NCBI GenBank assembly: GCA_964454335.1
Contig: CAYVVT010000002.1
Span: forward strand, 211,436 to 275,435
Source of the DNA: an uncultured Lentisphaeria bacterium
GTDB taxonomy: Bacteria; Fidelibacterota; UBA8477; JABMPR01
DNA: 64,000 nucleotides
Direction: 5' to 3'
Shown: positions 14,726-33,136 of the stretch, one piece after another
Numbering within the stretch: position 1 is the first letter of the stretch
Layout of the letters: the number at the start of each line of letters is the position of its first letter
Program-made: the position numbers and the translations under genes
Notes under the pieces: model-generated
The model's input: the letters and a program-made list of their open reading frames with translations, nothing else
Told to the model about the DNA's origin: nothing
Database searches by the model: none

Positions 14726-14728
14726 TTT

Positions 14729-15820
14729 TCACACTTTCATGCGCTGATAACGGTAATAGGCAGCGCACGCCCCTTCACTGGAGACCATGGTAGCGCCCAA
14801 TGGTGTCTGCGGGGTACATTCCTTACCGAAGGCAGGGCATTCGTGCGGTTTCTTCAATCCCTGCAGTACGACTCCACTGATGCACAAATCTGATTCCTGG
14901 GTCTGGATATCCTCCACCAGGAATTTCTTTTCGGCATCGAAGGCAGCATACTCATCCCTGACCTTGAAGCCACTCAGGGGGATCTCGCCGATACCGCGCC
15001 ATTTCCTGTTGGAAACCTCAAAGATCCTGTTCACCAGGTCCTGGGCGGGCCGATTGCCTCCACGTTGGACTGACCGGACATATTGGTTCTCCACCATGTT
15101 CTTACCGGCCTCCAGCAGCTTCACGGTCATGAGAATGCCTTCAAGTACGTCCATGGGCTCGAAACCGGTTACGACAATGGGGACTTCATACTTTGCTGCG
15201 ATGGGTTCGTATTCCTCCCAGCCCATGACCGTACAGACATGTCCGGCGGCCAGGTAACCCTGGACCCGATTGCTGGGTGAAGAAAGCAAAGCCTCCATGG
15301 CTGGTGGTACCAGCACATGGCTCACAAGTTCACTGAAATTCGTAAGCCCAAGACTGTGGGCCTGATCGATGGCCATGGCATTTCCCGGTGCGGTGGTCTC
15401 GAAACCCACGGCAAAGAAAACGACTTCATTGTCTGGATTTTCCTGGGCGATCCTGATGGCTTCAAGGGGCGAGTAAACGGTGCGGACATCCCCACCTTCG
15501 GAACGGACCATGAACAGGTCCTTATGACTGCCGGGTACCCGGAGCATATCACCAAAGCTGGTGAAGATGACATTCTCCCGGCCGGCGATCTCGATGGCCT
15601 TGTCGATGATCTCAAGCGGAGTGACACAAACAGGACAACCAGGACCATGTACCAGCTCGATCTCTTTCGGCAGGACCTGGTCGATACCATTCCTGATGAT
15701 GCTGTGGGTCTGACCGCCACAGATCTCCATGATTACCCAGGGCTGAGTGACAGTGGCGTGGATCTCATCCAGGATCTTCTTTGCTATGGCCGGGTCGCGG
15801 AATTCGTCTAAATATTTCAT
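14729..15820 (-). CDS. hypD: hydrogenase maturation protein HypD
   Basis: Signature motifs [14 protein letters not shown] and a C-terminal Cys cluster. Confidence 0.9.
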
Positions 15821-15989
15821 AATAGCATTTACTTAAAGAGTTTATTCATCGGTCATTGCGAGGTGCGAACGTCCCCCGCTATAGTCGGGGGATGTGAGCG
15901 ACGCGGCAATCCAGTGAGGTGAACCCGGATTTGATCTTGCTAGATCGCCACTGGCTGTCCACAGGACACCCCTCGCGATGACCTTCATA

Positions 15990-16262
15990 TTAATCCAGAT
16001 TCTTCTTCTCATCATCAAACAGTCCAGCCTCGCCCGCCGCTTCCAGCACCTCATTCCAGGCATCAAAGGACTTCTGCGCTTCCTCTTCATTCAGGATTGA
16101 AAGGGCAAAACCGGCATGTACTATTGTGTATTGACCCACTTCGATCTCTGGAACGTACTCCAGACAGGCCTTGTTCACGGTACCTGAGAAGTCAATGTTG
16201 CCCATCTTGAGCCCGTTCTCCTCGAACACTTCCACCAGTTTTCCGGGAATCGCCAGACACAT
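15990..16262 (-). CDS. hypC: hydrogenase maturation chaperone HypC
   Basis: N-terminal MCLAIPGKL (conserved Cys2), 90 aa. Confidence 0.85.
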   Translation of the reverse strand: MCLAIPGKLVEVFEENGLKMGNIDFSGTVNKACLEYVPEIEVGQYTIVHAGFALSILNEEEAQKSFDAWNEVLEAAGEAGLFDDEKKNLD

Positions 16263-16339
16263 ACTCTTTATCTCCTCAGCTTCGCATCATTAATCATTGC
16301 TGGAAATCTGAAATTTGGAATTTGAAACCCGATAAGCTA

Positions 16340-18622
16340 CTACTTATTCTCATTCTTCAATTCCTGATCCACTAAAAATCTTCGCCCGATGAGCGCCTGG
16401 CCCAGGGCAATGCCACCGTCATTGGTGGGTACCTGCGAATGGGTATATACCTCAAAATCCGCCCGTTCAAGTGCAGGAATAACATTCTCAAAGAGGAGCT
16501 GGTTCTGGAATACACCACCACTTAGCGCGACGCTATCAATACGATATTGCCGGCGGACCTTTCCGGCCAGATCCACCAGACCCTCCACCAGGGTCGCATG
16601 GAACCGTCGGCTGATCTCGGATAGGGTCAAGCCGTCCAGGATGTCATTGGCGATGGCCCTGATGAGTGGTTTGATTTTCCAGATAATGGCCGAATCTACT
16701 GTATCGAAGCAGCGATCATAGACCTCTGAATTCAGCTCCTGTCCCGCAGCCTGCATGAACTCGATGGCGGCCTGGGCTTCGTAACGAATCTCCTGCCTGC
16801 CGCCGCTCATAGCTGCCACGGCATCAAATAAGCGGCCCATACTGCTGGTGAGGACGGTCTGGAACTCGCGCTCCACCATCGTGCTCACCGCTTCGCAGTC
16901 ATGCTCCTGCAGGAATGGCAGATCAGGAACCTTTCCGTCAAAAGCCTGATGCAGGTAGGCATAGGCTATCCGCCAGGGCGCACGGATGGCGGCGTCGCCC
17001 CCGGGTAGCAGTAATGGTTCAAGATGCGCAGCTCGCTCGAAGCCATCGTAATCACCCACCAAGATCTCTCCACCCCAGATGGTTCCATCAATTCCATAGC
17101 CGGTACCGTCCAGAATGAGACCGATGACTGGCTCTTCCAGCTTGTTCTCCGCCATACAGGCTGCAAGATGAGCATGGTGGTGCTGGACTGCAAGACGGGG
17201 AATTCCTTCCTGCTGCTCCGCCCACTGCGTGGACAGATAGCGTGGGTGCATGTCGTGAACGATAAGCTCTGCAGAGCTCTCGAAGATCCTTTGGAGGTGA
17301 TCGGCGGTCAGCTTGAAAAAATCGTAGGCTTCAAGGTTTTCCAGGTCACCGATATGCTGACTCAGGAATGCGAAACGGTCTTTCAGCAAGCAGACTGTGT
17401 TCTTGAGCTCACCGCCTACCGCCAGGACAGATGGGCCGTCACTCTGTACAAACACGGGACGGGGTGCGAATCCCCGGCTGCGGCGGATTGACCGTATCAC
17501 ACCTGCAAGTTCGATGCTTACCGAATCATCCGTTCTCAGATAGATATCACGATTATGCAGCAGAAAATGGTCAGCCATACCGGAAAGTCTCGTAATCGCT
17601 TCATCGTTGTCGATGCATATGGGCTCTTCACTGTAGTTGGCGCTGGTCATCACCAGGATATCCGGTCCATGTGTCATGAGCAGGTGATGCAGTGGCGTAT
17701 AGGGCAGCATGATCCCCAGGCGGTCATTTCCCGGGGCCACCGATGGTGCCACCGCATTCGAATCCTTATGCCGCAGCAGAATGATCGGAGCCTGTATGGA
17801 TCGGAGCTGGCGTTCCTCCTGTTCACTCACATTGACAAGCCTGCGAAAAACGGCCATATCCTTCACCATAAGCGCAAAGGGTTTCTCCTCACGGCCTTTC
17901 GTCTCCCGCAGGCGGTTGACTGCGGCATCGTCACGGGCATCAACTGCCAGATGAAAGCCTCCCAGGCCCTTGATGGCAAGGATCATTCCCGTTCCCAGCA
18001 AACGCGCGGCTTCTGCGACAGGATCGACATCCTCCATCTTCTCACCCTGGTCATCGGTCAGCCAGACATGCGGTCCGCAGATGTGACAGGCATTGGGCTG
18101 GGCATGGAATCTTCTGTCCTGAGGGTCCTCGTATTCCCTGAGACATTCTGGACAGAGCTCAAAATGACGCATGGAGGTAAAGGGCCGATCGTAGGGGATA
18201 TTCTGAATGATGGTATAACGGGGACCGCAATTGGTGCAATTGATGAAAGGGTAGAGGTGGCGTCGATCGGAAGGATCGAACATCTCCCGTCGACAGTCCT
18301 CGCAGATCGCCACATCCGGTGAGATCAGGGTGCTTACTGTGACATTCGAGGAAGAGGGGATGATCCTGAAATCATCCTCGTCCTTAACAGTCATCGATTC
18401 CGATCCGATCTCGGCAATGACCGCCAGAGGAGGTGCTTCCTGCTCCAGTGTATCCACGAAACGCTGTACATTGCCGGGCTTCCCCTGAATCTCCACCAAC
18501 ACCCCCTGAGCGGTATTGCTGACCTCTCCAGTAAGCTCAAGCTGTTTTGCGAAGTTGAAAACAAAGGGTCGGAAACCGACCCCCTGGACAATGCCATTGA
18601 TATGTACTCTAAGACGTTCCAA
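16340..18622 (-). CDS. hypF: carbamoyltransferase HypF
   Basis: Acylphosphatase domain, two CxxC...CxxC zinc-finger pairs, YrdC-like and Kae1-like C-terminal domains; 760 aa. Confidence 0.9.
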   Translation of the reverse strand: MERLRVHINGIVQGVGFRPFVFNFAKQLELTGEVSNTAQGVLVEIQGKPGNVQRFVDTLEQEAPPLAVIAEIGSESMTVKDEDDFRIIPSSSNVTVSTLISPDVAICEDCRREMFDPSDRRHLYPFINCTNCGPRYTIIQNIPYDRPFTSMRHFELCPECLREYEDPQDRRFHAQPNACHICGPHVWLTDDQGEKMEDVDPVAEAARLLGTGMILAIKGLGGFHLAVDARDDAAVNRLRETKGREEKPFALMVKDMAVFRRLVNVSEQEERQLRSIQAPIILLRHKDSNAVAPSVAPGNDRLGIMLPYTPLHHLLMTHGPDILVMTSANYSEEPICIDNDEAITRLSGMADHFLLHNRDIYLRTDDSVSIELAGVIRSIRRSRGFAPRPVFVQSDGPSVLAVGGELKNTVCLLKDRFAFLSQHIGDLENLEAYDFFKLTADHLQRIFESSAELIVHDMHPRYLSTQWAEQQEGIPRLAVQHHHAHLAACMAENKLEEPVIGLILDGTGYGIDGTIWGGEILVGDYDGFERAAHLEPLLLPGGDAAIRAPWRIAYAYLHQAFDGKVPDLPFLQEHDCEAVSTMVEREFQTVLTSSMGRLFDAVAAMSGGRQEIRYEAQAAIEFMQAAGQELNSEVYDRCFDTVDSAIIWKIKPLIRAIANDILDGLTLSEISRRFHATLVEGLVDLAGKVRRQYRIDSVALSGGVFQNQLLFENVIPALERADFEVYTHSQVPTNDGGIALGQALIGRRFLVDQELKNENK

Positions 18623-18644
18623 GCGGTTCAGGCCCGGGTAATGC

Positions 18645-19412
18645 TCATGTTGATTTGACCTGGTCTTTCAGCCAATCCAGCCAGGTGTCAAGCCCTTCAC
18701 CCGTGGTGGCGCTGACTTCGAAGAATTCCAGGTGATGGTTCACCTGCAAGGCGTACTCTTTGCATTTTTCCAGGTCGAATTCCACATAGGGCAGCAGATC
18801 GATCTTGTTGATGATACAGATCCCGGCGGCATCGAACATGGTTGGATACTTCTGGGGTTTGTCCTCGCCTTCTGTTACCGAGATCACTACCACTTTCATG
18901 GCTTCCCCGAGATCAAATAGTGCCGGACACACCAGGTTACCGACATTCTCAATGAACAGGAGCGAGTTGTCAACCGGTTCGATGACCTTTAGCGCACGGT
19001 TCACCATGTCGGCGTCCAGATGGCAGCCGGTACCGGTATTGACCTGAACCACGGGAGCACCGGTGGCCTCCACCCGTTCCGCATCCCGCAGGGTTTGCTG
19101 GTCACCCTCGACGACGCTGCAGTCGATCTCATCCCTGATGGCTGTAATGGTCTTTTCCAGCAGGGTGGTCTTCCCTGAACCGGGACTGCTCACCAGGTTC
19201 AGCGCCGTGATATTTTTCGCTTCGAAATATCCGCGGTTCCGTTCGGCAAGAAGATTGTTCTTGCCCAGCACATCCCGCTCGACGTTGATCTCATGCCTGT
19301 GATCATGATCGTGGTCATGGTCATGTGGATATTCGTGATCGTGGTGGTGCTCGCCGGGTTTACGAATGGTCACCGCATCATCGGGTTGTCCGCAGCCGCA
19401 TGTATCACACAT
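18645..19412 (-). CDS. hypB: hydrogenase nickel incorporation GTPase HypB
   Basis: N-terminal CxxCGC motif, His-rich tract (HHHDHEYPHDHDHDHDHRH), P-loop GSGKTT. Confidence 0.9.
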   Translation of the reverse strand: MCDTCGCGQPDDAVTIRKPGEHHHDHEYPHDHDHDHDHRHEINVERDVLGKNNLLAERNRGYFEAKNITALNLVSSPGSGKTTLLEKTITAIRDEIDCSVVEGDQQTLRDAERVEATGAPVVQVNTGTGCHLDADMVNRALKVIEPVDNSLLFIENVGNLVCPALFDLGEAMKVVVISVTEGEDKPQKYPTMFDAAGICIINKIDLLPYVEFDLEKCKEYALQVNHHLEFFEVSATTGEGLDTWLDWLKDQVKST

Positions 19413-19460
19413 AAGCGTGTCCTTTGTTGGTCGTCAGAAACTCTCAGAGAGTTTGCTATG

Positions 19461-19805
19461 TCAATCTTCGACGGTGATACTGGCAACGCGCAGTTCCCGT
19501 CCCTGTACGATCTCCACCCGGAAACCGGAGCATTCGGGGCAGATCGTGATAAAGTTATCCACTTCAAAAGCAGTGCCACAATCCTGGCATTCACCCTTGC
19601 CAGGTAATTCATTCACCAGGAGTTCTGCATCTTCCGCCCGGGTGTCCTTGCTGGCGGCACTGAAACAGAATTGCAGTGAATCCACCAGGACGCCTGCCAG
19701 CTTGCCCACATCAAGTTGAATGCTCTCGATCTTTACAGCTCCGCCTGCTTCAGCTTCACGGCTGGCAATATCAATGACACTCATGGCGATGGACATCTCG
19801 TGCAT
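19461..19805 (-). CDS. hypA: hydrogenase nickel insertion protein HypA
   Basis: MHEMSIA N-terminus and two CxxC zinc-site pairs (CQDC...CPEC). Confidence 0.85.
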   Translation of the reverse strand: MHEMSIAMSVIDIASREAEAGGAVKIESIQLDVGKLAGVLVDSLQFCFSAASKDTRAEDAELLVNELPGKGECQDCGTAFEVDNFITICPECSGFRVEIVQGRELRVASITVED

Positions 19806-22449: not shown

Positions 22450-22498
22450 CACCCAACACCTAACGCCTAACACCTAACACCTAACACCTAACTCCTAA
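22450..22498. repeat. seven tandem copies of a heptamer (consensus CACCTAA on plus; TTAGGTG on the minus-strand transcript)
   Basis: Units CACCCAA, CACCTAA, CGCCTAA, CACCTAA x3, CTCCTAA are contiguous; the array overlaps the stop codon (22495-22497) of the rhodanese-like gene. Confidence 0.85.
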
Positions 22499-23118
22499 CA
22501 TCCCCCCGCAGGAGCCTTCTTCTTCGGTCTGCGCTTGATGGGTGGTTTCTTGGCAGTGGATTTCGTGTCAGCCTCTTTGGTAACGGCGTTGCCTCCGCCA
22601 AAAAAGCCGCTGGCACCCTTCTGGAATTCATAACGGGCCAGTTCTTCGTCAGGTGAGCTTGCGGCAGGTGCCTGGGGATTCATTATGGTGTCGAACCAGT
22701 AGTTCAGCCCGCCCTGAAGGACGTAGTTGTTCTCATATCCCAGTTGCCGCAGGATCATCCAGGTCTGATGGGCATAAAGGGAGCCGTTGGAATAGAGGAT
22801 GTTCATCTTGACGTCCTGATCGGTTATGTCAGCATACTCTTCGTTCAGGACCTCGGTAAACGGGATATTGATCGCACCGTCCAGATGGAACTTGTCATAC
22901 TCTTCAGGTGTGCGGACATCAATGAGCTGTATGGAAGGATCACGTGTGATGATCCAGTGCGCCAGATCCTCAGGTTGGATCATCTCTGCACCGTATTGGA
23001 CTTCGGTCAACATCTCTGCAGCACCCAGCCTGTAGGGCGTCGTCGTATTCTCGGGAACCATGGCGATGACCAGGCCCAGGGTCAGGATTGCCAGGAAGAT
23101 CAGATTACGCGGGTTCAT
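22495..23118 (-). CDS. rhodanese-like domain protein with basic C-terminal tail ending in Cys
   Basis: Start taken at ATG 23118 (signal/TM MNPRNLIFLAILTLGLVIAMV). Rhodanese fold motifs (IDVRTPEEY..., ...QGGLNYW); the expected active-site Cys position reads Ser (LYSNGS). Confidence 0.65.
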   Translation of the reverse strand: MNPRNLIFLAILTLGLVIAMVPENTTTPYRLGAAEMLTEVQYGAEMIQPEDLAHWIITRDPSIQLIDVRTPEEYDKFHLDGAINIPFTEVLNEEYADITDQDVKMNILYSNGSLYAHQTWMILRQLGYENNYVLQGGLNYWFDTIMNPQAPAASSPDEELARYEFQKGASGFFGGGNAVTKEADTKSTAKKPPIKRRPKKKAPAGGC

Positions 23119-23119
23119 A

Positions 23120-23740
23120 TCAGTACTCCTCTCTGGGGAATCTGCGTTCCGCCCATTCAGCCATGAAGAACATGGCGATAGCGACCAGAATGACCAGCAG
23201 GCTGAACACACCGCCGGAAATACCCAGAACCGCCGGGACTTTCAGCCCACCCAGTGCTTTGGCCATATGCAGGTCCTGCCACAGAGGGTATCCTTCAGCG
23301 AAAATAAAGATCCCGATGAAGAGCCCGGCAATGAATACCATGGCATCCAGCTTGCCGATGGCTGCGGCACAGAAGCTTGTTCCCGGACAGAAACCGCCGA
23401 TAATGAATCCGGCACCCATGATCACACCGCCGATGATGGTGGACCACAGATAGGTCGGGTTCACATAGACCAGGCTCAGGTCGATCCAGCCAAAGAGGCT
23501 GAAGTAGAGCAGACCCAGCATGGCCGTGATGGCGGCGGTGAAGAATACTTTCAATACGACAGTGTCATATCCATAGAAGATGCCTGCGAGTTTACGGCTG
23601 GAAGAGAAACCTGCCTGCTCCAGTACGAAACCAAATCCAATTCCAATAGCAAATGCGATGAACAGGTCCCAGTTCAATGCTATGATCTCTTGTGGTACGA
23701 GTGGTCCCATCCTAGACTCCGATCCAGTTACGACGAACAA
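23120..23740 (-). CDS. YeeE/YedE-family sulfur-compound transporter, second half-gene
   Basis: Sulfur-transport-domain motif IIGGFCPGTS; multi-TM. Confidence 0.7.
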   Translation of the reverse strand: MFVVTGSESRMGPLVPQEIIALNWDLFIAFAIGIGFGFVLEQAGFSSSRKLAGIFYGYDTVVLKVFFTAAITAMLGLLYFSLFGWIDLSLVYVNPTYLWSTIIGGVIMGAGFIIGGFCPGTSFCAAAIGKLDAMVFIAGLFIGIFIFAEGYPLWQDLHMAKALGGLKVPAVLGISGGVFSLLVILVAIAMFFMAEWAERRFPREEY

Positions 23741-24227
23741 AATAGGCCAGTGCGAAGGCGGTTCCGAAAATGGCCATCATCGAGATAAATCCTGCTACTG
23801 ACAGGACTGCCATGCCCGTGAGGGCCGAGCCACTGGTACAACCTCGACCCAACTGGGAGCCAAAGCCGAAAAGGATCCCCCCGGCTGCTGCAAATATGAG
23901 TCTGCGGTTTGCGCTGATACCGGGAAAATGTTCGATCTTCATCTTGAGGCGGCCAGAGAGAGCACCGGACAAGAATCCACCGATGAGCACTCCCAGCATC
24001 TCGAAAACCAGCCACGTTTTCAGCGGTGATTTACCCTCACCAACATATTTGCTGTAGTAGACGGAGTTCGAAGTGTGTTCCGGAGCAACAGTTTCCACCC
24101 CGGCCACGATGGCGCTCTTAACTGCACCGCTTGCGCCCAATCCTCTGCCAGAGAAGAAAAAGGCCAGCAGCAGGACCGTTCCCAGCAGCACACCTGCCAC
24201 ATAGGGATTCATATACTTGGTTTTCAA
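23712..24227 (-). CDS. YeeE/YedE-family sulfur-compound transporter, first half-gene
   Basis: Motif GSQLGRGCTSGSALTG; multi-TM; overlaps the downstream half-gene by 29 nt. Confidence 0.7.
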   Translation of the reverse strand: MKTKYMNPYVAGVLLGTVLLLAFFFSGRGLGASGAVKSAIVAGVETVAPEHTSNSVYYSKYVGEGKSPLKTWLVFEMLGVLIGGFLSGALSGRLKMKIEHFPGISANRRLIFAAAGGILFGFGSQLGRGCTSGSALTGMAVLSVAGFISMMAIFGTAFALAYFVRRNWIGV

Positions 24228-24328: not shown

Positions 24329-25270
24329 CTAATACAGCCATCTACTCGCCTGTCCGGCTTCCACAACGATGAACCTGAGGGCCAGGTTACCCATGATGAT
24401 GAGGAAGAAGGGCACGATGGCCGGAATGAATTTCTTGCGCAGTTCCAGGATCTCAAGCAAGGCCGGGAACAGCAGTCCCAGACCCACGACAAAGACCCAG
24501 AAGGATACGGTATATTCACCACCCAGGAACATCTCCGCAGCCTGGATATGGACCTCCGTACCGGAAAGAAATCCCATGAACATATGTACAATGAGGAAGA
24601 TCTCGATCCCGATGAGGATCACATCGATCCGTGCAAACCGCCGTTTCTCCTTATGGTCTTTGGAGAAGAATGCGTTGATGGCCGCTGCTGCGGACAGACC
24701 GCTGGTGAGAAACAACGGACCGAGTATGGCTGTATTCCAGAAGGGCCGGGCGTTAAATGCGGATAAAAGGATGCCAGTATACATACCCAGGATGACAGCG
24801 AGTAGGATAAGTGCATAGGCCAACAGGTCACGCTTCGATCTCGCCCAGTTCACGACTGCTTTGACTTCCTTGATCTTCCAATCCCATTTGGGGAAGAGCT
24901 CCTCGATCCAGATCGCGCACCACAGAATGGAGAGAGGTGTGATGAGCGTCAGAGTCCAGGCACCCCAAGACATGGGGCTTTCCCAGCGGATGTTGGTGAA
25001 CAGCTGCCAGAAATACCAGAAGTGGCTGAGGTCCAGCAACAGGGCCAGCAATCCTACTCCGATCAGTACCGGAACTGCCAGTGGTGTTATCTTCACAGCC
25101 GTTGGGTATCTGTCAGCCTTCCCCCGAACTGTGAACCACGCTGAAAAGATGAGTAATCCTGCTGAAATACCTCCCAGGAATAAATAGAAGGGGATCTCCC
25201 AGCCCCAGACGTGCAGGATGGGATCGATCTCGGGATTCATGCGGCCACTGGTGATGATTTCTTCGATCAT
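24329..25270 (-). CDS. NrfD/PsrC-type integral membrane subunit of the molybdopterin oxidoreductase
   Basis: About 8 TM helices; start taken at ATG 25270 (the track extension would overlap the ferredoxin subunit). Confidence 0.7.
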   Translation of the reverse strand: MIEEIITSGRMNPEIDPILHVWGWEIPFYLFLGGISAGLLIFSAWFTVRGKADRYPTAVKITPLAVPVLIGVGLLALLLDLSHFWYFWQLFTNIRWESPMSWGAWTLTLITPLSILWCAIWIEELFPKWDWKIKEVKAVVNWARSKRDLLAYALILLAVILGMYTGILLSAFNARPFWNTAILGPLFLTSGLSAAAAINAFFSKDHKEKRRFARIDVILIGIEIFLIVHMFMGFLSGTEVHIQAAEMFLGGEYTVSFWVFVVGLGLLFPALLEILELRKKFIPAIVPFFLIIMGNLALRFIVVEAGQASRWLY

Positions 25271-25281
25271 GTATTCGATCC

Positions 25282-25815
25282 TTACAGGAGATAATAGACT
25301 TTTGGTTTGGTGCCGGCTTCGGGTATCAGGGTCTTCCACTTCCGGGTAGCCAGCAGCTTGGAGATCGTACTGTTGGGATCGTCAATATCCCCGAAGGTCA
25401 TACATTTTGTCGGACACACTGCCACGCAGGCGGGATCCATCCCATCCTGCACCCGGTGGAGACAGAACGTGCACTTATCGATATAGCCTTCCGGATGTAC
25501 GAAGCGGGCGTCATATGGACAGCTGGCGATACAGGCTTTGCAGCCGATGCATTCATGGGGATCCACCATGACTGTCCCACCATCAGAATAGTGGCTGGCC
25601 TTCGTGGGGCAGGTGCGTACGCAGGGAGCGGACGCGCAGTGGTTACAGCGTTCGGACCGGATCTCCATGCTCAATTCAGGATAAGTGCCCACCGTTTTTT
25701 CGACGATCCAGTCCCGGCAATAGCCCAGGGGCACATCGTTCTCGGTCTGGCAGGCGACGACACAGTCACTGCAGCCGACGCATTTACGGGTGTCGATGGT
25801 CATTGCATACCTCAT
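25282..25815 (-). CDS. 4Fe-4S ferredoxin-type electron-transfer subunit (PsrB/PhsB-like)
   Basis: Four Cys clusters of the CxxCxxCxxxCP type. Confidence 0.8.
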   Translation of the reverse strand: MRYAMTIDTRKCVGCSDCVVACQTENDVPLGYCRDWIVEKTVGTYPELSMEIRSERCNHCASAPCVRTCPTKASHYSDGGTVMVDPHECIGCKACIASCPYDARFVHPEGYIDKCTFCLHRVQDGMDPACVAVCPTKCMTFGDIDDPNSTISKLLATRKWKTLIPEAGTKPKVYYLL

Positions 25816-28052
25816 GAGCCCACCTCCTCTCCGGCTTCGAAGCGGAAGGTGACGAAATTGGAACGCATACCTGTTCCGCCCATGATGGGATCGATCTTGA
25901 CCCTGGTGATCAGATCGGCATCGCTGGCACCACGGCCATAGGCCCGCGTCAGGCGTTTGTCCGTATGGCCGAAACCATGGACCATGTAAATACTATCCCA
26001 GCGAATACGCTCGGTGATACGCACCTTGATGGGCGTTTTACTTACAACGCCATCCTGATTCTCAAGCCAGACATACTCGCCCGTGCTCAAATCCCATTCC
26101 TTGGCCACCTTGGGATTCACCCAGACACTGTTCTCGTCCATGAGATCGGTAAGGTTCGGATTGTTGGCGGTACGGCTGAAGGTGTGCATGGGTGCCCGAC
26201 CGTAGTTCAGACGGTAGTAGCCTTCCGGCGGTTCCTCGTGAGCGGTGTACTTGGGCAGGGGATCGAAGCCTTCGTCCGCCATGGCCGTGGAATAGAGCTC
26301 GATCTTACCCGTGTTGGTATTGAATTCGAAATCTTCAAGCCTCTCCATGGGGTAGAGGTCCGGATATTCCCGGGGGAATTTCTTTACACCGATGCGCTGC
26401 ATCTCCTCCAGTGAACTGCCGACCTGTTTCAATTGCCAGTCCAGCATCTCCTCGACACTGTTCCAGGCGAAGTACTCCTCCAGCCCCAGTCGTTTGGAGA
26501 GTTCCCTGGCCATCCAGGCGGCAGGTTTGGTATTATATTTCGGTTCGACGGCAGGCATGCGCAGCGCGATAGTGGGCTCGCGATGGCCGCTTACCCGAAT
26601 ATTGTCATAGCGCTCTAGGTAGGTGCATTCCGGTAAGATGACATCAGCCCAGCCCGTGATCTCCATGGGCATGGTATCCACCACCACCAGCAGATCCAGG
26701 TTCTGCATCGCTTCAATGGTCTTCTTCTGGTCCGGTAGAGTGTGGATGAGATTGGTGCCATTAACGATCCAGCCCTTGAAGGAACAATCCCGTTCTGCCG
26801 ATGGGATGGTGGCATCGCAGATACCGGATGCCAGGGCAAGATCAGCGAGTCTGTACTGACCCGGAAAAGCATCCCGCCAGTTGCGTTTCGGTTTGGGGAA
26901 TGGTGGATGGGGATAAGCCGGTACGGATCGTTTCTCCGGATTGTAATAACCGCCGCGACGGCCCCAGGAACCCAAAAGGGCATTCAGCATGGCAACAGCA
27001 CGGAGTCGCTGAGTGTCATCTCCATACCAGGTCACATGACGTCCGGGATGAATGATCACCCGGGGACTGGCGTTGGCCATCTCCCGGGCTGTATCACGGA
27101 TCACGCGGGGTTTGATCGTGGTAATACCATAGGCCCATTCAGGTGTAAAAGGTGCTACATGGGCTTTGAGCTCTTCAAAACCGTAGGTGTATTTCTCGAC
27201 ATATTCCCGGTCAAAAAGCTGTTCTTCGACTATGACGTTCATCCAGGCCAGCAGTAATGCTAGATCGGTGGCCGGTTTGATGGGCAACCAGAATTTTGAT
27301 TTACCTGCTGCTATAGAAAAACGTGGATCCACAGTGATGACGGATGCTCCGTTGTCGATGGCATCGGCCATTTCCTGTACGGGTCCATTGTGCATGTTCT
27401 CGCCGAAATGGGAACCGATGAGCACCAGACAGCGCGTATCCCGGATATCAACGCGTTCCGGTGAGCCGACGCCTTCTCCAAAGGTGGAGATGAATCCCAC
27501 TTCCCGGGGACCCCGGCATTGTGCATAGGAAGGCGCTGCGATGTTGTTCGAGCCAAAGGCTTTCAACAGATGACCGAAGTATTTACCACCGGATCCATGA
27601 CTGAACAGAGCCACACATTCCGGACCATGCTCAGCTGCGATCTTCTGCATTCCTGCGGCGATGGTGTCGAAAGCCTCATCCCAGGTTGCTTCGCGGAAAA
27701 CCTGTTCTCCGCGCTCTTCAGTCCTGATCAGAGGTGTCTTCAATCTGTCAGAGTCATTGTACATGCCGACACCACCGGTACCCCTGGGACATAGACGTCC
27801 ATTGCAATGTGGATCATCTTCGTTACCGGTGATCTTCCAGACCTCACCATCCTCATTGGTGTGGACCCAGCCGGCACATTTCCAGAAACAGACCTCACAG
27901 TATGTGGGGGTGCGTTTCGAATACATGCCCGGCAGCACATCCGGGGAGAGGATATCACCCTTGATGCTGTCAAAGACCGGATTGGCGAAGGCCAGACCAC
28001 CGAGTCCCATACCGGCCAGCTTGATGAATTCTCTGCGGGAAACGGATCTCAT
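25812..28052 (-). CDS. molybdopterin (Mo-bisPGD) oxidoreductase catalytic subunit with Tat signal; polysulfide/thiosulfate/tetrathionate-reductase-like
   Basis: Twin-arginine signal MRSVSRREFIKLAGMGLGGLAFA; N-terminal FeS motif CEVCFWKCAG...CNGRLCPRG; 746 aa. Substrate inferred only from the sulfur-gene context. Confidence 0.75.
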   Translation of the reverse strand: MRSVSRREFIKLAGMGLGGLAFANPVFDSIKGDILSPDVLPGMYSKRTPTYCEVCFWKCAGWVHTNEDGEVWKITGNEDDPHCNGRLCPRGTGGVGMYNDSDRLKTPLIRTEERGEQVFREATWDEAFDTIAAGMQKIAAEHGPECVALFSHGSGGKYFGHLLKAFGSNNIAAPSYAQCRGPREVGFISTFGEGVGSPERVDIRDTRCLVLIGSHFGENMHNGPVQEMADAIDNGASVITVDPRFSIAAGKSKFWLPIKPATDLALLLAWMNVIVEEQLFDREYVEKYTYGFEELKAHVAPFTPEWAYGITTIKPRVIRDTAREMANASPRVIIHPGRHVTWYGDDTQRLRAVAMLNALLGSWGRRGGYYNPEKRSVPAYPHPPFPKPKRNWRDAFPGQYRLADLALASGICDATIPSAERDCSFKGWIVNGTNLIHTLPDQKKTIEAMQNLDLLVVVDTMPMEITGWADVILPECTYLERYDNIRVSGHREPTIALRMPAVEPKYNTKPAAWMARELSKRLGLEEYFAWNSVEEMLDWQLKQVGSSLEEMQRIGVKKFPREYPDLYPMERLEDFEFNTNTGKIELYSTAMADEGFDPLPKYTAHEEPPEGYYRLNYGRAPMHTFSRTANNPNLTDLMDENSVWVNPKVAKEWDLSTGEYVWLENQDGVVSKTPIKVRITERIRWDSIYMVHGFGHTDKRLTRAYGRGASDADLITRVKIDPIMGGTGMRSNFVTFRFEAGEEVGS

Positions 28053-28519
28053 GCGGTTGTCCAGTTCTCTTTAAGGAATTCTTTCATGTTATGACAGGTA
28101 CTGGCGCGCCGATAGACCTCGCAGTTGCGACAGTCCAGTTCACGACAGAACGGTCCCATGCGTTTCACCGCCCAGCAAGGTTCCTTGATCTCGGTGAATG
28201 CATCACAGGCTTGCTGGTCTTCAGGACTGCAGCCTTTCAGCTCCCAGCAGGGGATCATGGATAGAATAGCCTTGATACCCGCCAGATTGAGACCACGCTC
28301 TTCGATAGCCAGGCGGATGCAGCGCAGACGTTCGATATCCATCTGGGAATAAAGCCGCTGTTTTGAAGCTGTACGCTCGGGAAGCAGGAGACCCTCTGTC
28401 TCATACATGCGCAAGGTATGTACGGAAACACCCACCAGATCAGCAGCTACACTGATGGTGTAAACCGGTCTCTCCTGGTCAGCTAGTTTCGTGGGAATGT
28501 CTTGTGCTGTCATAATCAT
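28049..28519 (-). CDS. MerR-family transcriptional regulator with Cys-rich C-terminal domain
   Basis: N-terminal MerR HTH (YTISVAADLVGVSVHTLRMYETEGLL); C-terminal 60 aa contain 8 Cys (CWELKGC...C...C...CRELDCRNC...C); stop overlaps the oxidoreductase start. Confidence 0.7.
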   Translation of the reverse strand: MIMTAQDIPTKLADQERPVYTISVAADLVGVSVHTLRMYETEGLLLPERTASKQRLYSQMDIERLRCIRLAIEERGLNLAGIKAILSMIPCWELKGCSPEDQQACDAFTEIKEPCWAVKRMGPFCRELDCRNCEVYRRASTCHNMKEFLKENWTTA

Positions 28520-28884
28520 CCTATATTCTGGAATCTAACTTTTCAATATTTGTGCCACTATATGTAGCAATGCAAAAGGTTGGTGATACTCATAGTTCAT
28601 GACATGTATTCTTGGTACTGGCACATACCATAAGTGTAAATATATCAGCATGTTATACTGAGGTGAACCTTGCTGGTACGCGACAAGATCCAGAGGTTCC
28701 TGCCCGATCCTGGATTCCAGAGACCTCGCTCCTGCTTCCTCAGGCATCATTTCGGTACAGTCCTGAGAAGTGTTTATCAAGCTTGAGAATTGATCATGGA
28801 TGACCTGCGGCTAAACACTCCCATAAAGAAACTGTGCAATTATCTTAAACGGTTGGTAAATGATCGTCGTATAGAGAGGTTCAG

Positions 28885-29928
28885 ATGACCTTCAAGAAAA
28901 CCTTGCTGCTTATAAGCCTGAGCTTGCTGTTCCTGGGAGTGATCGATGCCGAGATCAAGTTCTGGGGGGATGCGGATATCAGACCACGCTACGATGCGGT
29001 GACCTACGAGGACACATCCCGACTTGACGTCACCAATCTCTACTATCTCCATCGCACACGCATAAGTCTTCGGGCCGATATCGGCAACGGCTGGTACTAC
29101 CACACCAAGGTCGGTCACAATGGTCTTTCCTACTGGTTCGACAGATTTGGTACAGGCGAACTGCCGGATTCCCTGGCCGTTCCCTCTGCAGGCAGGAGCG
29201 GTGTTGACTTTCTGGAGATGTATATCGGTCTTAAGCGTAACAATATGGGTGGTGCTGCGGGACTCATTCCTGTTGACGGCCGCAGCAATCCCATCTTCGA
29301 TCTGCATTACTATCCCGACATTGCCGTTGAATTCCCCTGGTACCGATACAACCGGAATGCAGCGGCCGGCTTTCAGGGTTGGGGAGAGATCGGTCCCGGG
29401 ACTGTGGGAGTGACGGTACTCATCGATGATGACGCCGGTTCCAAAGTTGACGAGGAAAAAGTGGGTAAGGATCGAACTTCCATCATGCTGGATTTCACCA
29501 GCGATCTCTACGGGATCAAATTCCAACCACAGCTCATCAATACCTCGGCGGGTGAAGGACTGGAGGCTCCCATCTCCTATGGTTTCAATGTCGATCTACC
29601 CAGGTTTGCCGGGTTGAGAACCTCGGCCAACGCATTCTGGACGAGCCAGACGGTTGAGGATTCACTCACTGGCGCAACTCCCTACGAAGGTTTCCTGGTC
29701 AGGGCCAAGGTCAGTGGCAAGATGGGACCTGGTAATATGGTCTTCTGGCATGACTGGGCTGAAGTAGACACCACCAAGTACCGTTTTCTCTGGGCTTCCT
29801 ATCGCATCCCGCTGCATCGCTCTGAAGATGGTGATGTAGCCCTCATGCCTATCTATCGATTGTACACCAAGGTCGAGGATTACAGCCGGGCCAAGATCGA
29901 GCTGGCGCTGAATATTCGATTTAAATGA
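28885..29928 (+). CDS. hypothetical outer-membrane (porin-like) protein
   Basis: Signal peptide MTFKKTLLLISLSLLFLGVIDA; beta-rich with aromatic C-terminus (...LNIRFK); divergent from the MerR operon across an AT-rich 365-nt spacer. Confidence 0.4.
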   Translation: MTFKKTLLLISLSLLFLGVIDAEIKFWGDADIRPRYDAVTYEDTSRLDVTNLYYLHRTRISLRADIGNGWYYHTKVGHNGLSYWFDRFGTGELPDSLAVPSAGRSGVDFLEMYIGLKRNNMGGAAGLIPVDGRSNPIFDLHYYPDIAVEFPWYRYNRNAAAGFQGWGEIGPGTVGVTVLIDDDAGSKVDEEKVGKDRTSIMLDFTSDLYGIKFQPQLINTSAGEGLEAPISYGFNVDLPRFAGLRTSANAFWTSQTVEDSLTGATPYEGFLVRAKVSGKMGPGNMVFWHDWAEVDTTKYRFLWASYRIPLHRSEDGDVALMPIYRLYTKVEDYSRAKIELALNIRFK

Positions 29929-30277: not shown

Positions 30278-31810
30278 ATGTTGCCCATGAGTCGCAGAGA
30301 CTTTGTTAAGATCACCGGCACGGGCCTGGCCCTGGCAACGATACCCGGCTTCATCCGGCGTGGGATCGCCGCCGGCAGTGAAGGTACGGGAAACCCATAT
30401 AGTTTTTACTTCCAACGCTTTGGTATCGATGAGGATGTCATCTACAAAGTGATGTCTGAAGCTTTGCATTATGGCGGGGACTATTGTGATCTGTTCTTTC
30501 AGAACACCATGTCGAATTCCATCCGCCTGCAGGACAACATCGTCAGCGCTGCCAGCACCAACGTTCAGCTTGGCGTCGGGATCCGCGTCCTGAAAGGCAT
30601 CCAGACCGGGTACTCATTCACAGAGGATATCTCCCTGGACAGCATGAAGAAGGCTGCGCGCACGGCAGCCGGGATCGCTTCCGGCTCGGCCAAGGCGCCA
30701 CCGCAGGCCCTGAACACATCCAAGCTGGAGAATTATTACGATACAGAGATGAGTTGGGAGGAAGTCGGCATCAAGCAGCGCGTGGATATGATGACTGTCA
30801 TGAATGAGCAGGTCTTCAAACTGGATCCACGTGTGGTGAAAGCCAATGTCTATTTCAGTGACAGCGACAGCTACATGCTGGTGGCCAACTCGGATGGTGT
30901 TATCGCCGCAGATTACCAGCCCATGCTGCGCGTTACTGTAGGATGTACGGCTGAACAGGATGGCCAGCGGGAGAATAACTATTTCAATTTCTCCGCCCGG
31001 AACGACATCAGCTATCTGAACCAGGAACGCCTGGACCGCCTGCCCACAGAAGCGGTTGCACGAACGGTTGAGCTGTTCGAAGCGCAGTCACCGCCTGCTG
31101 GTGAACTGCCCGTTGTTCTGGCTGCCGGCAGTGCGGGCATCCTGCTGCACGAAGCGATCGGACACGGTCTCGAAGCCGATTTCAATCGTCAGGGTACTTC
31201 TATTTATTCCGAGAAAATGAACAAGAAGATCGCCGAGGATTTTATCACCATCGTCGACAATGGTACGAATCCTTACATCCGCGGCTCCATAAATGTGGAC
31301 GATGAAGGCTGTCCCAGCGAGAATACGGTTCTGGTAGAAGACGGGATTCTCCGCTCCTACATCCATGACCGCATCTCAGCGGAACATTACGGTGTTGAGC
31401 CTACGGGTAACGGCCGCCGTGAATCCTTCAAGCATTATCCCATGCCCCGGATGCGCAACACCTACATGCTGGATGGTCCCCACACTTATGATGAGATCAT
31501 CGGCAATGTGAAATACGGCATCCTCGCCGACCAGTTCACCAACGGACAGGTCAATATCGGTCCTGGAGATTTCACATTCTACGTGAAGTCAGGTGCCCTT
31601 ATCGAGGATGGCAAGATCACTGCTCCGATAAAGGATGTGAACATCATCGGGAACGGTCCTGAGGTCCTGGAAAAGGTCACCATGGTCGCCAACGATATGA
31701 AGTTGGCCGAAGGCGGCTGGACCTGCGGGAAGAATGGTCAGGGTGTGCCTGTATCCCAGGGTATGCCCAGCGTACTGGTATCATCCATCACAGTTGGCGG
31801 CAGGGGGTAG
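30278..31810 (+). CDS. tldD: TldD-family metallopeptidase with twin-arginine (Tat) signal
   Basis: N-terminal SRRDFVKITGTGLALATIPG Tat motif; TldD/PmbA fold motifs incl. HEAIGHGLEADF. Confidence 0.8.
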   Translation: MLPMSRRDFVKITGTGLALATIPGFIRRGIAAGSEGTGNPYSFYFQRFGIDEDVIYKVMSEALHYGGDYCDLFFQNTMSNSIRLQDNIVSAASTNVQLGVGIRVLKGIQTGYSFTEDISLDSMKKAARTAAGIASGSAKAPPQALNTSKLENYYDTEMSWEEVGIKQRVDMMTVMNEQVFKLDPRVVKANVYFSDSDSYMLVANSDGVIAADYQPMLRVTVGCTAEQDGQRENNYFNFSARNDISYLNQERLDRLPTEAVARTVELFEAQSPPAGELPVVLAAGSAGILLHEAIGHGLEADFNRQGTSIYSEKMNKKIAEDFITIVDNGTNPYIRGSINVDDEGCPSENTVLVEDGILRSYIHDRISAEHYGVEPTGNGRRESFKHYPMPRMRNTYMLDGPHTYDEIIGNVKYGILADQFTNGQVNIGPGDFTFYVKSGALIEDGKITAPIKDVNIIGNGPEVLEKVTMVANDMKLAEGGWTCGKNGQGVPVSQGMPSVLVSSITVGGRG

Positions 31811-31813
31811 ATC

Positions 31814-33136
31814 ATGGAAAAGAATGTATGGCTGGATCTCGGGTACTGGGCACAGAAGAGGGCCGGTTCTCTGGGAGCAAATGACAGCTCCATCAACATC
31901 AGCCACAGCCGCAGCGTCGAAGTCGACTATCGCGATGGCGAAGTTGAGAAGATGAAGGAATCAACGCAGCAGTCCATGGGGATCGAAGTCTACGCCAATG
32001 GTCGTTATTCTTCGCATTCTACCAATGATCTGCGTAAGGAATCATTGGAGAAATTCATCCAGAATGCGGTGGACCTGACGGCCTACCTGGAGGAAGATAA
32101 ATTTCGTGGTCTGGCTGATCCGGAACTCTACAAGGGTCAGCCCGAGGTGGATCTGGACCTGCGCGATCCTGAATACGAGAAGATCACCACCGAATCCCGT
32201 AAGGCCCGGGCGGCTGAGCTGGGCGAACATGTGCAGGGCCAGGACGAACGACTGATCTCAGTGGCCTCGGGTTTCTCCGATTACCACGGTGAGAGCTACA
32301 AGCTGAAATCCAACGGCTTTGAAGGCCATCGGGAAACAACCTATTACAGTCAGTATGCAGAAGTCTCTCTCCAGGGTGAGGGCGATCGCAAGCCTCAGAG
32401 CTGGCGTTATTACAGCTCCAGGCACCTGGCGGATATGCCCGGCACCAAGCAGACGGCCCTGGAAGCCCTGAAGCGCACCCAGGACCAGGTTGGCCAGGAG
32501 AAGGTCGACACGGCCACCATGCCCATGTTGGTTGAAAACTCGAATGCCCCGGGTTTGTTCTGGCGGCTCATGAATCCGCTGAGCGCTTCAGCCATTCAGC
32601 AGAAGAGCTCCTTCCTGGATGGGAGGAAGGATACACAGATCGCAGCTGAATTGTTGACGATCGTCGATGAACCGGCTATTGTCAGGGGTCTGGGCAGCCG
32701 ATATTATGATGGTGACGGTATTGCTGCCAGGACCATGCCCGTCATTGAGAACGGGATCCTGAAGAACTACTATGTGGATGTCTATTACGGCCGCAAGCTG
32801 GGTTGGGCACCTACAACCGGTGGTGCATCCAATCTGGTGCTAAAACCGGGAACGCGGAATCCTGCAGATATGGAAGCAGATATTGAACGTGGGATCCTCG
32901 TCACCAACTGGCTCGGTGGGAACGCCAACGGGACCACAGGTGATTTCTCACTGGGTGTGGCCGGCTGGCTCATCGAGAACGGGAAGCGAACCATCCCCAT
33001 CAATGAGATGAACATCTCGGGGAATTACGCCGATCTGCTGAAGAACCTGAAAGAGGTGGGGAACGATCCCTATCAGTATTCCTCTTTCAGAATTCCTACA
33101 CTGCTGTTTGATGGGGTGACCTTCTCAGGGACCTGA
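31814..33136 (+). CDS. pmbA: TldE/PmbA-family partner of TldD (no signal peptide)
   Basis: PmbA/TldD-family motifs; 3-nt gap after tldD. Confidence 0.75.
   Translation: MEKNVWLDLGYWAQKRAGSLGANDSSINISHSRSVEVDYRDGEVEKMKESTQQSMGIEVYANGRYSSHSTNDLRKESLEKFIQNAVDLTAYLEEDKFRGLADPELYKGQPEVDLDLRDPEYEKITTESRKARAAELGEHVQGQDERLISVASGFSDYHGESYKLKSNGFEGHRETTYYSQYAEVSLQGEGDRKPQSWRYYSSRHLADMPGTKQTALEALKRTQDQVGQEKVDTATMPMLVENSNAPGLFWRLMNPLSASAIQQKSSFLDGRKDTQIAAELLTIVDEPAIVRGLGSRYYDGDGIAARTMPVIENGILKNYYVDVYYGRKLGWAPTTGGASNLVLKPGTRNPADMEADIERGILVTNWLGGNANGTTGDFSLGVAGWLIENGKRTIPINEMNISGNYADLLKNLKEVGNDPYQYSSFRIPTLLFDGVTFSGT

Follow-up and report, generated by a model that had tools for sequence, protein, structure and literature searches.

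What does the MerR-family protein encoded at the head of a Psr/Phs-like molybdoenzyme operon sense, and how does it act on that operon? The question is raised by a 64,000-nt stretch of DNA from an uncultured bacterium of the GTDB lineage Fidelibacterota (assembly GCA_964454335.1, contig CAYVVT010000002.1, forward-strand positions 211,436 to 275,435), referred to here as the window, in which an open reading frame (ORF) on the (−) strand directly precedes the gene for a molybdopterin oxidoreductase (Table 1). We found that the product of this ORF joins a winged helix-turn-helix (HTH) of the MerR family to a divergent, shortened form of the two-CW domain, a Cys-rich module that is catalogued but uncharacterized, and that homologs with the same two parts stand in front of respiratory or sulfur cassettes in several phyla, with a palindrome close to the promoter. 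The protein represents a one-component, Cys-based type of regulator, built from a "mini-MerR" HTH and an uncharacterized sensor domain, and its conserved Cys module, together with its place at the head of sulfur-respiration operons, recommends it as a candidate for a switch, responsive to sulfur or redox state, that has yet to be described.

The regulator gene heads a Psr-like operon

The TGA of the regulator gene overlaps the ATG of the oxidoreductase gene by 4 nt (ATGA, positions 28049 to 28052), and the same overlap is present in Marinimicrobia homologs; as read from the sequence, the molybdoenzyme gene is translationally coupled to the regulator gene. An earlier annotation made from the DNA letters (hereafter the original prediction) had claimed both this overlap and the place of the regulator as the first gene of the operon. 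The two claims stand, as does the spacer it had delimited upstream (positions 28520 to 28884), whose far boundary is a divergent ORF for a 347-aa product. On the same strand, the regulator gene is followed by psrA, psrB, psrC, two YeeE/YedE-type Sulf_transp genes, a rhodanese gene, a gene for an S8 peptidase, and hypA, hypB, hypF, hypD and hypE. The top NCBIfam match of the oxidoreductase is the thiosulfate reductase PhsA, at 471 bits versus a cut-off of 694; because this score falls below the cut-off, we refer to the protein as Psr/Phs-like. The regulator itself probably starts at the second ATG of the listed ORF (position 28513), which would give a protein of 154 aa, because a 154-aa database protein is 100% identical to it and the ATG common to 12 Marinimicrobia upstream regions aligns at that position.

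Relationship of the Cys-rich half to the two-CW domain

The C-terminal half of the regulator carries eight Cys within 52 residues (positions 91, 97, 105, 115, 125, 130, 133 and 142), with the spacing C-x5-C-x7-C-x9-C-x9-C-x4-C-x2-C-x8-C, while a ninth, C67, lies inside the DNA-binding domain. All of the motifs on which the original prediction had based its eight-Cys C-terminal domain (CWELKGC, CDA, CWAV, CRELDCRNC and CH) were found. Across 93 aligned homologs, C105, C115, C130 and C133 are present in every sequence, C91 in 92 and C97 in 91; C125 occurs in 81, with a further 10 having a Cys shifted by two positions, and C142 occurs in 77. Several other residues are retained as well, with P90, W92 and W116 invariant or nearly so and A107, V135, Y136 and K146 conserved, and the overall pattern can be written as PCW-x4-C-x7-C-x-A-[YF]-x6-P-CW-x8-C-x4-C-x2-C-x-VY-x5-C. 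The Cys array is a conserved feature and not a product of chance.

A Pfam scan of the isolated C-terminal 72 residues gave no match at E ≤ 10, and a sequence search of the PDB with a profile of the Cys domain likewise gave no matches at E ≤ 10. The same 72 residues scored 11.3 bits (E 0.35) on the NCBIfam two-CW model NF045718, versus a cut-off of 35. When the profile of the Cys domain was run against 1.84 billion representative sequences, 560 matches were obtained at E ≤ 1e-3, and two-CW chemoreceptors were retrieved at E 1e-13 to 1e-14. A profile-to-profile alignment (hhalign) of the regulator family with the two-CW domains of methyl-accepting chemotaxis proteins (MCPs), which score 39 to 93 bits on NF045718, reached 98.9% probability with E 2.6e-17; it places both CW motifs, the C-x-A-[YF] motif and all seven family Cys in register, with 10 residues deleted between Cys 5 and Cys 6. 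A word-indexed homology search started from canonical two-CW domains returned four proteins only. By these alignments, the Cys-rich half is a divergent member of the two-CW family, in which seven of the Cys are family-wide and C142 is an extra, eighth Cys of the MerR-fused subfamily. It differs from canonical NF045718 members in scoring under the cut-off, in the 10-residue deletion, in the additional C142, and in being fused to a DNA-binding rather than a signaling domain. The homology check proposed alongside the original prediction thus returned a two-CW relationship and no known zinc ribbon in Pfam or PDB.

The proteins that share the domain bear on what it does. Two MCPs (P0150 and P0165) carry two tandem copies at the C terminus and score 91 to 93 bits on NF045718, one MCP with the domain comes from Thermodesulfobacteriota, and other carriers are an HD-GYP-type protein (HD_5; P0235), a histidine-kinase fragment (P0257) and an OmpR-type plus MerR fusion (P0201). 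A population of small proteins of ~115 to 130 aa (P0217, P0225, P0244 and P0239) consist of one N-terminal transmembrane helix and a single two-CW domain. Reuse on chemoreceptors, a histidine kinase and an HD-GYP-type protein gives the domain the look of a portable input module of the sensor type and argues against a zinc ribbon with a structural role only.

A structural role was nevertheless weighed, in which the Cys would build a zinc fold for dimerization or stability and the signal would arrive via a partner protein, as it does for GlnR with feedback-inhibited glutamine synthetase and for HspR with DnaK. GlnR, TnrA and HspR, the nearest structural relatives of the DNA-binding domain (see below), have C-terminal tails through which protein partners control them, and a regulator without a coiled coil needs some other dimerizing or stabilizing element. 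The full-length AlphaFold2 model renders the Cys domain as short helices and loops, which may be what is expected of a small metal-stabilized fold; modeled alone, the domain has a predicted local distance difference test (pLDDT) score of 62, too low to support a fold search. Against this role, input domains are typically added on in the way seen here for MCPs (in tandem), a kinase fragment and an HD-GYP-type protein, neither Pfam nor PDB offered a match to a known zinc ribbon or finger, and no conserved candidate partner was seen apart from the cassette proteins. Overall, we regard a purely structural zinc fold as improbable.

Homologs of the regulator precede sulfur and respiratory cassettes

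A search of 5.8 billion proteins uncovered 113 full-length clusters (142 to 168 aa) with the same two-part architecture, originating from Candidatus Marinimicrobia (Neomarinimicrobiota), Ignavibacteria, Melioribacteraceae, Calditrichota and metagenome-assembled genomes labeled as "Bacteroidetes." Matches ranking below these clusters were plain HspR-like proteins without the Cys domain. For the analysis of genomic context, 97 loci were assembled by looking up exact matches and by scanning 185,579 species genomes; removal of duplicates left 91 regulator copies, of which the 86 with at least 1.2 kb of downstream sequence formed the context sample.

We found that a respiratory or sulfur cassette lies directly downstream, on the same strand, in 76 of these 86 copies. 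Specifically, the next gene encodes PsrA in 49 copies (usually followed by genes for PsrB, PsrC, two Sulf_transp proteins and a rhodanese), an SQR/FCSD-like flavoprotein in 11 (usually with DUF1641, a DsrC-like protein and DsrE2), an octaheme Otr-like cytochrome (PF11783) in 10 (usually with cytochrome b, Sulf_transp and a Sulf_transp-rhodanese protein) and another multiheme cytochrome in 6, with something else in the remaining 10. The link to sulfur compounds put forward in the original prediction thereby gains strong comparative support, in that homologs across phyla head PsrABC, Otr-like or SQR/DsrC/DsrE cassettes, and this context ties the regulator family to dissimilatory sulfur metabolism.

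Four loci (L063, L067, L069 and L081) have two regulator copies on one stretch, heading a Psr and an SQR-like cassette, respectively. In a neighbor-joining tree, the Ignavibacteria and Melioribacter regulators group by cassette type, which favors cassette-specific control, and the protein is very probably a dedicated local regulator of its own cassette. Some Ignavibacteria/Melioribacteraceae genomes line up cassettes in series: at L063 (2834-13649) and L067 (2292-13132), an Otr cassette is followed by a regulator with a Psr cassette and then by a second regulator with an SQR-like/DsrC/DsrE cassette. An exception to the first-gene rule occurs at L016/L017 (3846-7444) of one "Bacteroidetes" lineage, where the regulator comes after Pyr_redox_2-DUF1641-DsrC-DsrE2; there, a 33-aa ORF stands in front of the regulator gene, and neither type of palindrome described below is found upstream.

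The DNA-binding half belongs to the GlnR/TnrA/HspR subgroup

The HTH exceeds the gathering scores of the MerR family (PF13411/PF00376), with 72 bits for Pfam MerR_1 (E 4e-20; cut-off, 21.6) and 45 bits for Pfam MerR (cut-off, 28.2). In a profile search of PDB sequences, GlnR (2.5e-17) and TnrA ranked above MerR, CadR, CueR and SoxR. The AlphaFold2 model of the regulator (pLDDT 90; predicted template modeling score, 0.82) shows an N-terminal helix, the winged HTH and a short, 8-residue helix (residues 79 to 86), followed by the Cys domain, and a structural search with it gave GlnR and TnrA as best matches, in alignments that end at ~80 residues and include nothing beyond the HTH. The long antiparallel coiled-coil dimerization helix that marks canonical MerR, CueR, ZntR and SoxR is absent. 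The regulator therefore belongs to the coiled-coil-less, or mini-MerR, subgroup of GlnR, TnrA and HspR, and activation by the classical MerR mechanism of DNA untwisting is unlikely. Of the "standard MerR HTH" in the original prediction, the family assignment holds, while the subtype is a different one that lacks the dimerization coiled coil.

Its orientation also looks less odd than had been proposed. The original prediction had set the regulator apart from most MerR proteins, whose genes are divergent from their targets, and its gene is indeed co-directional at the head of an operon, but such placement is ordinary for this subtype: glnR heads glnRA, and hspR lies within the dnaK operon. The regulator further resembles GlnR, TnrA and HspR in that a helix precedes the HTH at the N terminus, a long dimerization helix is missing, the gene is part of the operon it would control or stands first in it, the C-terminal extension would serve as regulatory input, and the candidate operator is comparable to their ~17- to 21-bp palindromes. 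It departs from them in its extension, a two-CW domain with seven to eight Cys instead of the glutamine-synthetase-binding tail of GlnR/TnrA or the DnaK-dependent region of HspR, and in its presumptive targets, which are sulfur-respiration genes rather than nitrogen or chaperone genes. Only the DNA-binding fold is shared with GlnR and TnrA, as the NCBIfam TnrA model gives 38 bits versus a cut-off of 140, no glnA is nearby, and the spacer contains no TnrA box (TGTNA-N7-TNACA).

Existing annotation raises the alternative that the protein is an HspR ortholog adjoining psr genes by chance. Homologs are named "MerR family transcriptional regulator" or "HspR," or, at JGI, "MerR family/heat shock protein HspR," and HspR models are the top NCBIfam matches of the regulator, at 79 to 84 bits. 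These scores are under the cut-offs, however (79.2 bits for NF047375, versus an equivalog cut-off of 105), the C-terminal half is unrelated to HspR, and true HspR matches lose the Cys domain in the alignment. Nor does the context fit, since the spacer holds no HAIR-like site (CTTGAGT-N7-ACTCAAG) at up to three mismatches, no dnaK, clpB or cbpA adjoins the regulator in the loci whose gene content was listed, and so large a share of copies directly precedes a respiratory or sulfur cassette. Sequence and context together effectively exclude an HspR ortholog, which we rate the least probable of the explanations considered.

A promoter-proximal palindrome is a candidate operator

Comparison of 93 distinct regulator upstream regions revealed two adjacent conserved elements, a −24/−12-like motif and a palindrome that comes right after the motif or overlaps it. 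The palindrome lies directly upstream of nearly every regulator copy. In Marinimicrobia it follows the consensus CCTAKAT-N6-ATMTAGG and ends 3 to 10 nt before the ATG, and the columns TA.ATT...TATAG are invariant in 12 upstream regions. The Ignavibacteria counterpart is GTTGATA-N8-TATCAAC, whose core (TTGATA-N8-TATCAA) occurs at 58 sites in 0.99 Mb compared with 9.2 in shuffled sequences, a 6-fold enrichment, with 39 of the 58 sites located no more than 130 nt upstream of a regulator gene. A default inverted-repeat finder returned nothing in the window spacer, where the imperfect palindrome is visible only by comparison with homologous promoters. Being 3 to 10 nt from the ATG in Marinimicrobia, the palindrome must overlap the transcription start or the early transcribed region, and this position favors repression with autoregulation over activation.

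At the four loci with two regulator copies, the arms of the paired operators are nearly identical while the central 8 bp differ. The operator center is TTTATAAA-like before Psr and Otr cassettes and non-AT-rich before SQR-like cassettes.

The second element, [TC]GGCA-N6-TNG[CAG], is present in 69 of the 93 upstream regions, versus 0.1 expected from shuffled sequences, mostly 50 to 59 nt before the ATG and across phyla. In the Marinimicrobia alignment, the GGCA and the G at −12 are invariant and the spacing is exactly of the sigma-54 type. No Rfam RNA, riboswitch or other, was matched in the window spacer at E ≤ 1. There is also no sigma-70 promoter with a 19- to 20-bp spacer around the palindrome, the sole sigma-70-like match having a spacer of 17 bp.

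The last result bears on another explanation, namely, that the protein is a classical MerR metal sensor, for molybdate/tungstate or a thiophilic metal, that turns on the molybdoenzyme operon by untwisting a promoter whose spacer is too long. The HTH is of the MerR family, the operon does encode a Mo enzyme, and the NCBIfam ZntR and MerR models each align over most of the protein (residues 20 to 145 and 21 to 142) at 41 bits, far under their cut-offs. Yet such a sensor would be expected to have a coiled coil, a metal-binding loop of the CueR/ZntR/MerR type and a promoter with a 19- to 20-bp spacer, all of which are missing here; scores are 3 to 4 times under the equivalog cut-offs, and close paralogs head heme and flavoprotein cassettes that contain no Mo. 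We consider this explanation effectively excluded as well, if marginally less remote than an HspR ortholog. SoxR offers a related comparison, as it too combines a MerR-family HTH with a C-terminal Cys cluster and uses that cluster, a [2Fe-2S] center, as its redox input. The coiled coil, the compact C-x2-C-x-C-x5-C motif and the sigma-70 activation across a 19-bp spacer that characterize SoxR have no counterpart in the regulator, which scores 33 bits on TIGR01950 versus a cut-off of 116.9.

A repressor that may respond to a sulfur or redox signal

We favor, at about an even chance, a composite reading in which the protein acts as a local, autoregulated repressor and uses its Cys domain to detect a sulfur or redox signal in the cytoplasm. 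A regulator dimer would bind the ~20-bp palindrome, which would sit immediately downstream of, and partly overlap, a core promoter formed by the −24/−12-like element, and the bound dimer would repress its own operon, comprising psrA-psrB-psrC, the two yeeE/yedE-type genes and the rhodanese gene. The Cys-rich domain would be the input, where reactive thiols, or a Cys-ligated metal or Fe-S center, would meet a sulfur-derived signal in the cytoplasm. The likeliest candidate would be sulfane sulfur or a polysulfide- or thiosulfate-derived species, possibly imported by the co-transcribed YeeE/YedE-type proteins, and its reaction with the domain would lower the affinity for DNA, such that availability of the substrate brings about expression of the reductase. 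The domain identities, the Cys conservation, the place in the operon, the recurrent linkage to cassettes and the conserved palindrome near the promoter are observed, whereas repression (as opposed to activation), the signal and the cofactor are what we infer here, each at its own strength: that the regulator represses through the palindrome appears slightly more probable than that it does not, and sulfur species as its signal come out somewhat short of even. GlnR and HspR, both autoregulated repressors encoded in their own operons, provide a precedent.

Known sensors of reactive sulfur lend this proposal a functional analogy. BigR and SqrR (ArsR family), CstR (CsoR family) and the archaeal S0-responsive SurR are small Cys-based regulators, as is proposed for the protein described here, and derepression by reactive sulfur species, the logic they follow, may by analogy apply to it. 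The persulfide sensor BigR controls the yeeE-yedE-pdo2 operon, and split YeeE/YedE pairs of this kind are characteristic cargo of persulfide-responsive operons (PMC7315123); like BigR, the regulator heads an operon with YeeE/YedE-type proteins and a sulfurtransferase. The resemblance is one of function only, because the fold is unrelated to those of BigR, SqrR and CstR, and no ArsR or CsoR match was obtained in Pfam or NCBIfam. Moreover, BigR, SqrR, CstR and SurR use a single dithiol pair and control detoxification or oxidation genes, whereas the regulator has seven to eight Cys and heads respiratory reductases.

Several observations weigh against the composite reading. The window palindrome matches 12 of the 14 positions of the Marinimicrobia consensus and is thus imperfect, and the −12 element reads GA in the window versus GC in most Marinimicrobia homologs. 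Signatures of an enhancer-binding protein (GAFTGA, Walker-A) were absent from the window and, within 7 kb, from all 97 loci, and sigma-54 promoters normally stay silent unless an AAA+ activator acts on them; for a repressor to occupy one would be unusual. The sequence also allows a sigma-70 reading (TTGAAA-17-TAGGAT), a weak one, which would instead place the palindrome in the promoter spacer, with a poor −10 that overlaps the first ATG. Finally, some homologs head multiheme-cytochrome operons without an obvious sulfur link, or unrelated genes (L012 and L066), and a general anaerobic or redox signal fits such neighbors equally well as sulfur.

These neighbors lead to the main rival, an O2 or redox sensor with FNR-like logic, in which the Cys would hold one or two O2-labile Fe-S clusters that report anoxia or redox state and limit the respiratory modules to anoxic conditions. 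The seven to eight conserved Cys would suffice for a [4Fe-4S] cluster plus a second site, all of the linked cassettes are anaerobic respiratory modules, including multiheme cytochromes without clear sulfur specificity (L073, L035 and L014), and the Cys domain also occurs on chemoreceptors and on the HD-GYP-type protein, classes in which energy or redox sensing is common; the Thermodesulfobacteriota, source of one two-CW MCP, are anaerobes. On the other hand, cassette-specific paralogs lying side by side would be redundant if they all answered to one common signal, and a hallmark of operons that respond to sulfur species is just this close association with YeeE/YedE-type proteins, rhodanese and DsrC/DsrE. 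Scans of Pfam, NCBIfam and the PDB matched no known Fe-S motif or family. We judge an O2 or redox sensor of this kind unlikely, although clearly more credible than a structural zinc fold, and continue to prefer the autoregulated repressor set out above.

Gene starts and neighboring genes

Positions of the regulator, its domains, the promoter elements and the surrounding genes are collected in Table 1. Two of the listed starts are probably too far upstream. The GTG given for psrC overlaps psrB by 58 nt, and homologs are 312 to 314 aa long, so the true psrC start probably lies downstream of it. The GTG given for the rhodanese gene overlaps the second Sulf_transp gene by 92 nt, homologs are 207 to 215 aa long, and the start is probably near position 23118 (MNPRN...). 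The rhodanese keeps the same position in homologous cassettes.

Table 1 Features of the regulator locus in the window
Feature	Position	Strand	Basis
Regulator ORF, 156 aa as listed	28049..28519	−	ORF list
Winged HTH, MerR family, GlnR/TnrA/HspR subtype, residues 20-87, no long coiled coil after it	28259..28462	−	
Cys-rich C-terminal domain, residues 90-146, divergent shortened two-CW domain	28082..28252	−	
Imperfect palindrome of 20 bp (candidate operator) immediately before the start codon, GTTAGAT-TCCAGA-ATATAGG; window sequence GTTAGATTCCAGAATATAGG	28520..28539	−	Comparison with homologous promoters
Sigma-54-like −24/−12 element TGGCAC-AAATA-TTGAA; window sequence TGGCACAAATATTGAA	28542..28557	−	Comparison with homologous promoters
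PsrA/PhsA-like molybdopterin oxidoreductase, 746 aa, twin-arginine signal (MRSVSRREFIK...)	25812..28052	−	Pfam Molybdopterin, Molydop_binding, Molybdop_Fe4S4
PsrB-like 4Fe-4S ferredoxin subunit	25282..25815	−	Pfam Fer4_11, E 1.4e-23
PsrC/NrfD-like membrane quinol-oxidizing subunit (listed start, GTG 25339)	24329..25339	−	Pfam NrfD, E 8.7e-48
YeeE/YedE-family "sulphur transport" half-protein 1	23712..24227	−	Pfam Sulf_transp, E 8e-20
YeeE/YedE-family "sulphur transport" half-protein 2	23120..23740	−	Pfam Sulf_transp, E 8e-14
Rhodanese-domain protein, N-terminal hydrophobic anchor or signal (listed start, GTG 23211)	22495..23211	−	Pfam Rhodanese, E 1e-14
S8 subtilase, 808 aa	19813..22239	−	
hypA, hypB, hypF, hypD, hypE (hydrogenase maturation)	13676..19805	−	
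Divergent ORF, 347 aa, N-terminal signal-like sequence	28885..29928	+	No Pfam or NCBIfam match
TldD/PmbA-type metallopeptidase pair	30278..33136	+	

Farther downstream, the hydrogenase maturation genes follow the psr cassette on the same strand, and the Marinimicrobia locus L001 has hypA, hypB and hypF in the matching position; their place beside the psr cassette suggests a genomic link between H2 metabolism and the reduction of sulfur compounds. The subtilase gene lies between the rhodanese gene and hypA, where L001 has an EamA transporter gene instead, and this junction of the island is therefore variable. Upstream, the divergent ORF was considered as a co-regulated partner and ruled out, as it is absent at all 97 homologous loci; from this comparison, its product is probably not part of the system. 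Beyond it, the first member of the TldD/PmbA-type pair has a twin-arginine-like N terminus (MLPMSRRDFVKITG...), which would be unusual for a family that is normally cytoplasmic.

Significance

Literature searches on MerR- or HspR-type regulators of sulfur respiration yielded no description of this fusion, of its operator or of a function for the two-CW domain, and no MerR-family persulfide sensor turned up. No paper using the name of the two-CW domain was found, nor was a Pfam model or a solved structure of it. The Marine Group A psr paper deals with a different, psrBCA-type cluster that lacks a twin-arginine translocation signal, and it makes no mention of MerR.

Viewed across the family, a broader and decidedly speculative proposal may be put forward. 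Reactive sulfur species may be what the widespread and hitherto uncharacterized two-CW domain senses, by way of a Cys-ligated center that is probably Fe-S, and its MerR-fused subfamily may constitute a transcription-factor family, the first of its kind, whose dedicated task is to turn on the dissimilatory respiration of sulfur compounds, through polysulfide/thiosulfate, tetrathionate and sulfide-related cassettes, in Marinimicrobia, Ignavibacteria and Calditrichota. Its paralogs would then be tuned to different sulfur species, and the domain would provide sulfur-taxis and sulfur-signaling inputs for chemoreceptors and HD-GYP-type (HD_5) proteins.

Oxygen-minimum zones harbor Marinimicrobia in abundance, and inferences about cryptic sulfur cycling draw on the psr-type genes of these bacteria. 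The predicted operator and the portable Cys-rich input domain make the switching-on of psr-type genes in these bacteria directly testable, and the linkage described here places the two-CW domain for the first time in a functional setting, that of sulfur respiration. If the domain does sense sulfur species, persulfide sensing, known from ArsR-type and CsoR-type proteins, would gain a third fold and a chemistry based on many Cys, and the presence of two-CW domains on chemoreceptors would be accounted for.

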